This document shows positions 2,467 to 3,133 of a stretch of 64,000 bases of DNA, in pieces (the stretch's first letter is position 1; every line of letters starts with the position of its first letter). The notes below the pieces were generated by a model. That model did no database searches. It was not told the DNA's origin and saw nothing but the letters and a program-made list of their open reading frames with translations. Position numbers and translations under genes: made by a program. Origin of the DNA: a virus; the IMG/VR virus record IMGVR_UViG_3300035670_000018, positions 1-64,000 of that record; one strand, given 5' to 3'.

Positions 2467-2815
2467 TGTTATCGGTGAAGGAAAACGAAAAACGAACTGG
2501 ACTGGGGTTCAAATCCCCACACCTCCACCAAAGACACTAGCAAGTGGCCATTGAGTGTTATGGGTAACACTCTTGAATAAAAAACCCAAGTCAAGCCGAG
2601 GGCGTAATGCGGCGACATATAAAAAAGGCTAGTGTCTCTGATGGGGGTGTTACTGGGAATCGACAGGCGTGGAATAGTGGACTGGAGATAACCGTAGGCG
2701 ACTACGTACAAGCGCAAAACTCTAAATGCAAATGATAACAACATTGCATCTAAGGCTTACGCTCTAGCAGCGTAATACCTGTGGGTATGGCTCCACCTAG
2801 AAACAGAACGGGCCA
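2467..2815 (+). ncRNA. ssrA: Circularly permuted (two-piece) tmRNA gene; tag peptide ANDNNIASKAYALAA
   Basis: Acceptor piece first: T-arm TGGGG-TTCAAAT-CCCCA (2503-2519), CACCTCC-A-CCA ending 2530. Coding piece starts GGGGGTG at 2643 and gives a 7-bp acceptor stem with G3.U70. Tag ORF 2728-2775. Outer ends approximate. Confidence 0.93.
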
Positions 2816-2845
2816 CCTTAACACACATGACACAGGAGAAATATC

Positions 2846-3097
2846 ATGTCAAAGAACCCTTACGAAATCCGTCTAGAACTTCTTCATATTGCGCGAGATT
2901 TTATTATTGAGCAAAATATGAACGAACGCATCCGTCTTGAGAATGATTGGGGCCTTGAAAGAGAAAAGGCTTCCATTGCACTATCTCAAGGACAGGATGT
3001 AACGTTGCCTCCGTTTCCAAGCGTGCCTAATATGGACGCAGAAGCTATCATCAAGCTGGCTGAAAAGCTGAACGGGTTCGTATCCAAGAATGAATAG
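2846..3097 (+). CDS. Hypothetical phage protein (83 aa)
   Basis: Strong RBS CAGGAG; MSKNPYEIRLELL N-terminus resembles a small protein seen in T4-like phages; followed by a terminator. Confidence 0.75.
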   Translation: MSKNPYEIRLELLHIARDFIIEQNMNERIRLENDWGLEREKASIALSQGQDVTLPPFPSVPNMDAEAIIKLAEKLNGFVSKNE

Positions 3098-3103
3098 AAA
3101 ATC

Positions 3104-3133
3104 AGAGGGGAGTATTGAAACTCCCCTCTTTTT
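3104..3133 (+). terminator. Rho-independent terminator
   Basis: AGAGGGGAGT-ATTGAA-ACTCCCCTCT stem-loop followed by a T run. Confidence 0.8.

Follow-up and report, generated by a model that had tools for sequence, protein, structure and literature searches.

The permuted tmRNA gene near the start of this phage genome contains a 112-nt spacer between its two pieces, and the question which it raises is whether this spacer is only removed during maturation or whether it forms a second, functional RNA hosted by the tmRNA gene. An earlier note on this DNA had proposed the latter, describing the spacer as a long and highly structured segment from which processing could release a stable RNA. The window analysed here, 64,000 nucleotides in length, opens a virus record of 167,363 bp which is rated complete and belongs to a T4-like phage. 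Rfam placed a permuted (two-piece) tmRNA gene at 2468-2775 (RF04321, 100.2 bits against a cut-off of 47), and the alpha-type tmRNA model RF01849 matched as well (56.4 bits, cut-off 50), whereas ARAGORN found neither tRNA nor tmRNA in the window. The acceptor piece lies at 2468-2530 on the plus strand, as do all features of the gene given below; both models and direct reading of the sequence support it, and the sequence places its T-arm at 2503-2519, the acceptor 3' strand CACCUCC at 2520-2526 and the encoded ACCA at 2527-2530. The coding piece, defined by the Rfam alignments, extends from the mature 5' G2643 to 2817 and begins with the acceptor 5' strand GGGGGUG (2643-2649), complementary to CACCUCC, so that a seven-pair acceptor stem with a G:U as its third pair (G3:U70) is formed across the spacer. 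The Rfam alignment places the spacer as an insertion within the acceptor-stem loop. With the CCA ending at 2530 and the 5' G at 2643, the intervening sequence (IVS) is exactly 2531-2642, and these bounds together with the two model matches bear out its identification as the IVS of a permuted tmRNA. The tag frame, ANDNNIASKAYALAA followed by a stop, was read directly from the sequence at 2728-2775. Alignments of relatives showed a block at 2431-2475, from the end of the upstream phosphatase gene through the 5' end of the tmRNA, which hardly varies among phages with only 67-80% identity in their genes; within it, 2453-2475 has 95.7% identity as against 67% in the body of the phosphatase gene. 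This block is probably the promoter region and start of the tmRNA gene. The T4-type late-promoter box TATAAATA is enriched in the window as a whole, with 11 matches against 4.4 expected, ten of the eleven on the plus strand. When the HtrA-like protein encoded downstream was used as a query, no relative was found in viral contigs.

We examined the fold of the spacer, both for the IVS alone and for the whole precursor. In each case the MFE and the centroid structures contained a closing helix of 10 perfect Watson-Crick pairs, formed by a 5' arm at 2532-2541 (AGACACUAGC) and a 3' arm at 2628-2637 (GCUAGUGUCU), and a hairpin of 8 Watson-Crick pairs at 2553-2560/2565-2572 with the loop UGGG, just as the earlier note had drawn them. 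We estimate the chance of a perfect 10-bp helix anchored at both ends of the IVS at about 1e-5, and that of a perfect 8-bp hairpin within the insert at about 0.01. The remaining elements of the proposed fold did not hold up: the strings for the two 4-bp hairpins TTGA/TCAA and GCCG/CGGC and for a UGGG/CCCA kissing loop are present, but neither the hairpins nor the contact occur in the MFE or the centroid structure, and the only three copies of the insert are so nearly identical that they offer no covariation in favour of these elements. For the whole IVS the folding energy is -32.3 kcal/mol (z = -2.9), a value equalled by 1 of 200 shuffles, while the apical 86 nt between the arms of the helix (2542-2627), taken alone, gave z = -1.34 and 11% of the shuffles folded equally well. 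The apical part is thus not unusually structured, and the description of the spacer as highly structured is true of the helix at its base and of one hairpin only.

To place these elements in a wider context we collected homologous spacers. Relatives were found via the adjacent upstream phosphatase gene, and three more loci via the conserved sequence of the tmRNA 5' end and promoter. This gave 15 related phage lineages, and a permuted tmRNA follows the phosphatase gene in all of those with enough downstream DNA. Their IVSs differ widely in length, being 112 nt in the window, L126 and L262, 111 nt in L270, 96 nt in L130, 90 nt in the L123 group and L129, 83 nt in L121 and L263, 82 nt in L259, 76 nt in L258, 44 nt in L133, 11 nt in L125 and 481 nt in L127. 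Among the clade IVSs of 44-112 nt, conservation is limited to the base of the IVS, where a helix of about 11 bp shows strong covariation. A wider pattern scan of viral contigs yielded about 27 phage tmRNAs of the permuted type, their IVSs measuring 4-134 nt, and helix statistics were taken from 22 phage IVSs of 27-134 nt. In these the helix opens at the first base after the CCA and stops 4 nt short of G+1. Pairs are present at positions 2-9 in 21-22 of the 22 sequences, with 4-6 pair types per position, at positions 10-11 in 18-19, and at position 12 in only 8. When the arms were swapped between IVSs, the mean helix shortened from 9.75 to 5.84 bp in the clade and from 8.1 to 3.0 bp in the broader set, and none of 5000 permutations reached the observed mean length. 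The leader UGAU precedes the mature 5' end in 18 of the 22. The same helix register, with at least 8 bp and the leaders TGAT or TGAC, was found in 41 of 118 distinct cellular alphaproteobacterial IVSs, a sample which the search pattern confined to 10-40 nt and whose length distribution is therefore biased. Judging from these sequences, the basal helix is not phage-specific. The comparison of homologous spacers thus upholds the part of the earlier proposal that ties the fold to tmRNA maturation for the basal helix only, which covaries and keeps a fixed register beside the RNase P site; the inner sequences of the relatives are unrelated. The remark that such a spacer can be very short also proved right, with IVSs of 4-20 nt in other phage tmRNAs and of 11 nt in the clade relative L125. 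The L125 IVS has neither helix nor insert, although the coding piece of L125 closely resembles that of L123, so neither element is strictly required.

Taken together, these results make it likely, in our judgement, that the spacer is a conserved processing hairpin topped by an exchangeable insert, giving the IVS of this permuted tmRNA two layers. The first layer would be a conserved precursor-processing module made up of the helix 2532-2541/2628-2637 and the unpaired 5' leader CUGAU at 2638-2642. A helix of about 11 bp would keep the two acceptor-stem strands paired, with ACCA facing the UGAU leader in an internal loop, and RNase P is predicted to cut at U2642/G2643. For E. coli RNase P the best leader is A(-2)U(-1), and the contacts of the enzyme reach to about N(-4) and fade beyond it (PMC9433436). 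The leader of the window has the optimal A(-2)U(-1), which is consistent with the predicted cut although not proof of it, and the fading of contacts beyond N(-4) fits a helix which stops exactly 4 nt from the cut. After this cleavage the rest of the IVS would remain joined to the CCA and end in a 3' tail of 4 nt, and would have to be removed by 3'-processing nucleases of the host, for which RNases E, III, Z or R are candidates. Permuted pre-tmRNA is known to be cut by tRNA-processing enzymes (PMC11915505), named as 'probably RNase P and tRNase Z' (PMC3985003). We infer the enzymes and the order of the cuts in the phage precursor from this background and from the position of the helix. Removal should require cleavage at or inside the helix, or else an exonuclease proficient on helices, and both would fragment the IVS; since no single-stranded gap separates the helix from the CCA, the IVS is probably cut or degraded in 3' maturation and not freed whole. 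The fixed length of about 11 bp suggests an enzyme that measures the helix. The second layer (2542-2627), which we call cassette A and which includes the 8-bp hairpin at 2553-2572, is the apical insert that fills the loop of the helix; it is not conserved and can be exchanged, would not be needed for tmRNA maturation, and would be one of many unrelated cassettes exchanged by recombination at this site in the clade.

The diversity of the inserts was evident from an all-against-all BLAST of the clade IVSs, in which the common sequence was confined to the basal 10-14 nt at each end, with the exception of the trio formed by the window, L126 and L262. This sharing at the ends alone implies at least 11 unrelated apical inserts in the clade. 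Near-identical copies of cassette A were present in L126 and L262 only, and unrelated sequence occupies its position in the other relatives. A search of viral contigs with exact and gapped cassette A patterns returned L126 only, and one metagenome scan gave one incomplete locus. The cassette is 97-99% identical in the three phages, whereas identity in the mature parts of their tmRNAs is only about 80%. Between the window and L262 the IVS is 97.3% identical (109/112), as against 79% for the acceptor piece, 79% for the start of the coding piece, 87% for the rest of the coding piece and 67% for the phosphatase gene, and Fisher's test of IVS against mature tmRNA identity gave p = 3e-5. In L126, on the other hand, the IVS and the 5' part of the gene match those of the window, but the tag module differs. 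The contrast between the IVS and its diverged flanks, together with this tag swap, indicates that the gene is a mosaic of modules of about 100 nt. It may be noted that the tag-coding module (2728-2775) has been swapped between otherwise near-identical tmRNA genes, the tag read directly from the sequence being ANDNNIASKAYALAA in the window and ANDNFAPRLALAA in L126. The IVS cassette moves as a unit, with the break points in the short invariant strands of the acceptor stem. The high identity of cassette A indicates that the cassette was exchanged recently, although strong selection on the insert would explain it too.

A site with such extreme allele diversity, at which sequence exchange is confined to the IVS, could also be a homing site, with the inserts being cleavage-resistant alleles or scars left by gene loss. 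T4-like phages commonly carry free-standing homing endonuclease genes, and one clade member does hold an endonuclease gene in this place: the 481-nt IVS of L127 (2624-3104) contains a 142-codon HNH endonuclease gene (ORF 2683-3111; Pfam PF01844, above the cut-off), whose stop codon forms part of the tmRNA 5' acceptor strand GGGCUAG. In place of the usual helix at the base and the UGAU leader, a 14-bp hairpin directly follows the CCA. But this is the single endonuclease-bearing allele seen, BLAST found no similarity between cassette A and the L127 IVS, and co-conversion should have homogenised the flanks as well, which are diverged. We therefore give homing little probability as the source of the insert diversity. 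Published IVSs contain a tRNA or a repeat element (PMC11915505), and along with the HNH gene of L127 they indicate that the site tolerates insertions.

We also considered whether the IVS accommodates a small protein gene, so that the excised piece or the precursor would serve as an mRNA too. A 25-codon frame (VLWVTLLNKKPKSSRGRNAATYKKG) runs from GTG 2555 to TAG 2630-2632; it covers 78 of the 112 nt, its stop lies in the 3' arm of the closing helix, and the sole apical change in L262 relative to the window is synonymous in this frame. Frames are likewise present in the IVSs of L127, with its HNH gene, and of L064, with a Cys-rich frame behind AGAGGA. However, one synonymous change has no statistical weight, the frame has no recognisable Shine-Dalgarno sequence, its GTG start is enclosed in the 8-bp hairpin, and in the other clade inserts the frames either have at most 13 codons or extend into the mature tmRNA. 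The one good pairing of a Shine-Dalgarno sequence with a start codon, GAGGG at 2598-2602 placed 4-5 nt before ATG 2607, opens a frame of 42 codons which leaves the IVS and continues into the mature tmRNA (to 2733), and its length differs in L262, where it has 21 codons; this frame is probably spurious or a relic. Neither frame of cassette A reads convincingly as a gene, and a small protein gene in this spacer seems very improbable to us. As a separate observation, the 134-nt IVS of L064 has AGAGGA at its start and an ATG 6 nt later, from which direct reading gives a Cys-rich frame (C..C....CCGTC) that also reads into the mature tmRNA.

Several other identities were considered for cassette A or parts of the IVS and rejected. 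Cassette A occurs as a single copy in the genome and is thus not a repeated element of it. The IVS contains no sigma-70-like promoter, terminator or exact TATAAATA by which the gene would be split into two transcripts, and TATAAAAA at 2618-2625 is not conserved in the other cassettes. A hammerhead core requires A9, and this essential A is missing when CUGAUG at 2638-2643 is read as part of such a core. Rfam matched no family to cassette A even in a search at E<=10, where the best E-values were 4-9 and none reached the gathering threshold, and the same search set aside a known ribozyme or riboswitch in the IVS.

These results bear directly on the possibility that cassette A is a functional RNA module, such as a decoy, a regulator, a protein-binding RNA or a new ribozyme, which is released or acts in cis during maturation. 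Its 97-99% identity in three phages with diverged flanks and its non-random 8-bp hairpin would be expected of such a module, and phage tmRNA genes of the Melnitz type have been reported with a glutamine-riboswitch-like element (PMC9004378). A precedent is a second insert, cassette B, which we found in other phages. It is a conserved cloverleaf-like RNA of about 75 nt. Besides a closing helix it has a T-arm-like hairpin with the loop UUCGANN, an arm whose invariant core is CAAGGACACCC-GNRA-GGGACUAA...ACACUUG, and a variable hairpin whose loop contains GG. Cassette B occurs in the IVS of alpha-type tmRNAs at L130:2214-2309 and L267:831-921 (minus strand), in the IVS of beta-type tmRNAs at L080:1607-1701, L264:3574-3666 and L265:5539-5630, and outside any tmRNA at L266:7770-7858 (L266/L269). 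Compensatory changes were seen in 8 of its 21 pairs, and it matched no Rfam family at E<=1. Being conserved and structured, cassette B indicates that inserts at the IVS site are not always junk. However, a covariance model built from the six copies of cassette B gave no match in the window at E<=1, so cassette A is not a diverged form of it, and nothing comparable can be said for cassette A itself, whose copies are too alike for covariation to be demonstrable, whose apical fold is no better than that of shuffled sequences and which has no Rfam match. Most clade relatives hold unrelated inserts at the site, and one holds none. The abutting of helix and CCA makes it probable that the IVS is cut or degraded in 3' maturation, and the A-rich single-stranded runs at 2578-2584 and 2621-2626 resemble RNase E targets. 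We therefore consider a functional RNA in cassette A quite unlikely. The inner hairpins are not kept in the homologous spacers, which carry at least 11 unrelated inserts or none, and this speaks against a conserved tmRNA-hosted ncRNA of the kind that had been suggested; release of a functional RNA from this spacer is not supported, and as a candidate for a tmRNA-hosted RNA, cassette B is preferable to the insert of the window.

A broader form of the same idea is that phage tmRNA spacers are a general landing pad for small mobile modules, and that cassette A is one functional module, either an RNA or a 25-residue peptide, kept nearly unchanged between phages whose tmRNAs have diverged. Such modules, comprising structured RNAs such as cassette B, small genes and endonuclease genes, may use the tmRNA promoter and the processing of the tmRNA for their expression or release. 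As applied to cassette A we regard this as unlikely. On the preferred reading, a processing hairpin with a swappable insert, cassette A is most likely a tolerated filler or a remnant of earlier insertions, and would have no function of its own.

The spacer of the window is in itself ordinary, consisting of a processing hairpin and filler, and the wider significance would lie in its two layers. The helix, which keeps its length of about 11 bp and its register in many phage and alphaproteobacterial pre-tmRNAs, may be a measured recognition element in the maturation of two-piece tmRNAs, of which the 3'-end enzyme is still only guessed at (PMC3985003). The loop of the helix, in turn, is a hot spot with at least 11 unrelated inserts exchanged as cassettes among related phages. 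Should the inserts have functions, a gene for a stable RNA would serve at the same time as a platform for the expression of accessory modules.

Comparable arrangements are known from other stable RNAs. In bacterial 23S rRNA, helices cut by RNase III have variable and sometimes ORF-bearing apical parts. The spacer of the window resembles these intervening sequences in that a basal helix marks the cut sites and the apical part is variable and dispensable, and here too the pieces would be held together by base pairing after excision. Unlike in the 23S rRNA stems, the 5' cut in the window is predicted for RNase P, and RNase III is no more than a candidate for the later steps. The closest cellular counterpart is the circularly permuted two-piece tmRNA of Alphaproteobacteria, for which the founding papers are reportedly those of Keiler, Shapiro and Williams in 2000 and of Sharkady and Williams in 2004. 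Like the IVS of the alphaproteobacterial gene, that of the window is bounded by the encoded CCA on one side and the 5' G of the coding piece on the other, and about one third of the sampled cellular IVSs have the same hairpin in the same register with the leader YUGAU or YUGAC. The alphaproteobacterial IVSs are removed by tRNA-processing enzymes (PMC11915505, PMC3985003). The IVS of the window differs from them in that its 112 nt far exceed the Rfam consensus loop of roughly 25-30 nt, the extra length being the apical insert found in three phages only. Among phages, aquatic T4-like myophages such as the OM43 phage Melnitz and the pelagimyophages encode two-piece tmRNAs (PMC9004378). The window, too, has an alpha-type permuted tmRNA in a T4-like phage, here one of metagenomic origin. 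Unlike Melnitz, which is reported to have a glutamine-riboswitch-like element in the 3' domain (PMC9004378), the gene of the window contains no riboswitch or other Rfam family. The relatives of the window phage are likewise metagenomic, and its tmRNA adjoins early-type genes as in aquatic T4-like myophages (PMC9004378). An alpha-type permuted tmRNA IVS in an aquatic T4-like phage is an already described combination (PMC9004378), and long IVSs with foreign content are already on record (PMC11915505).
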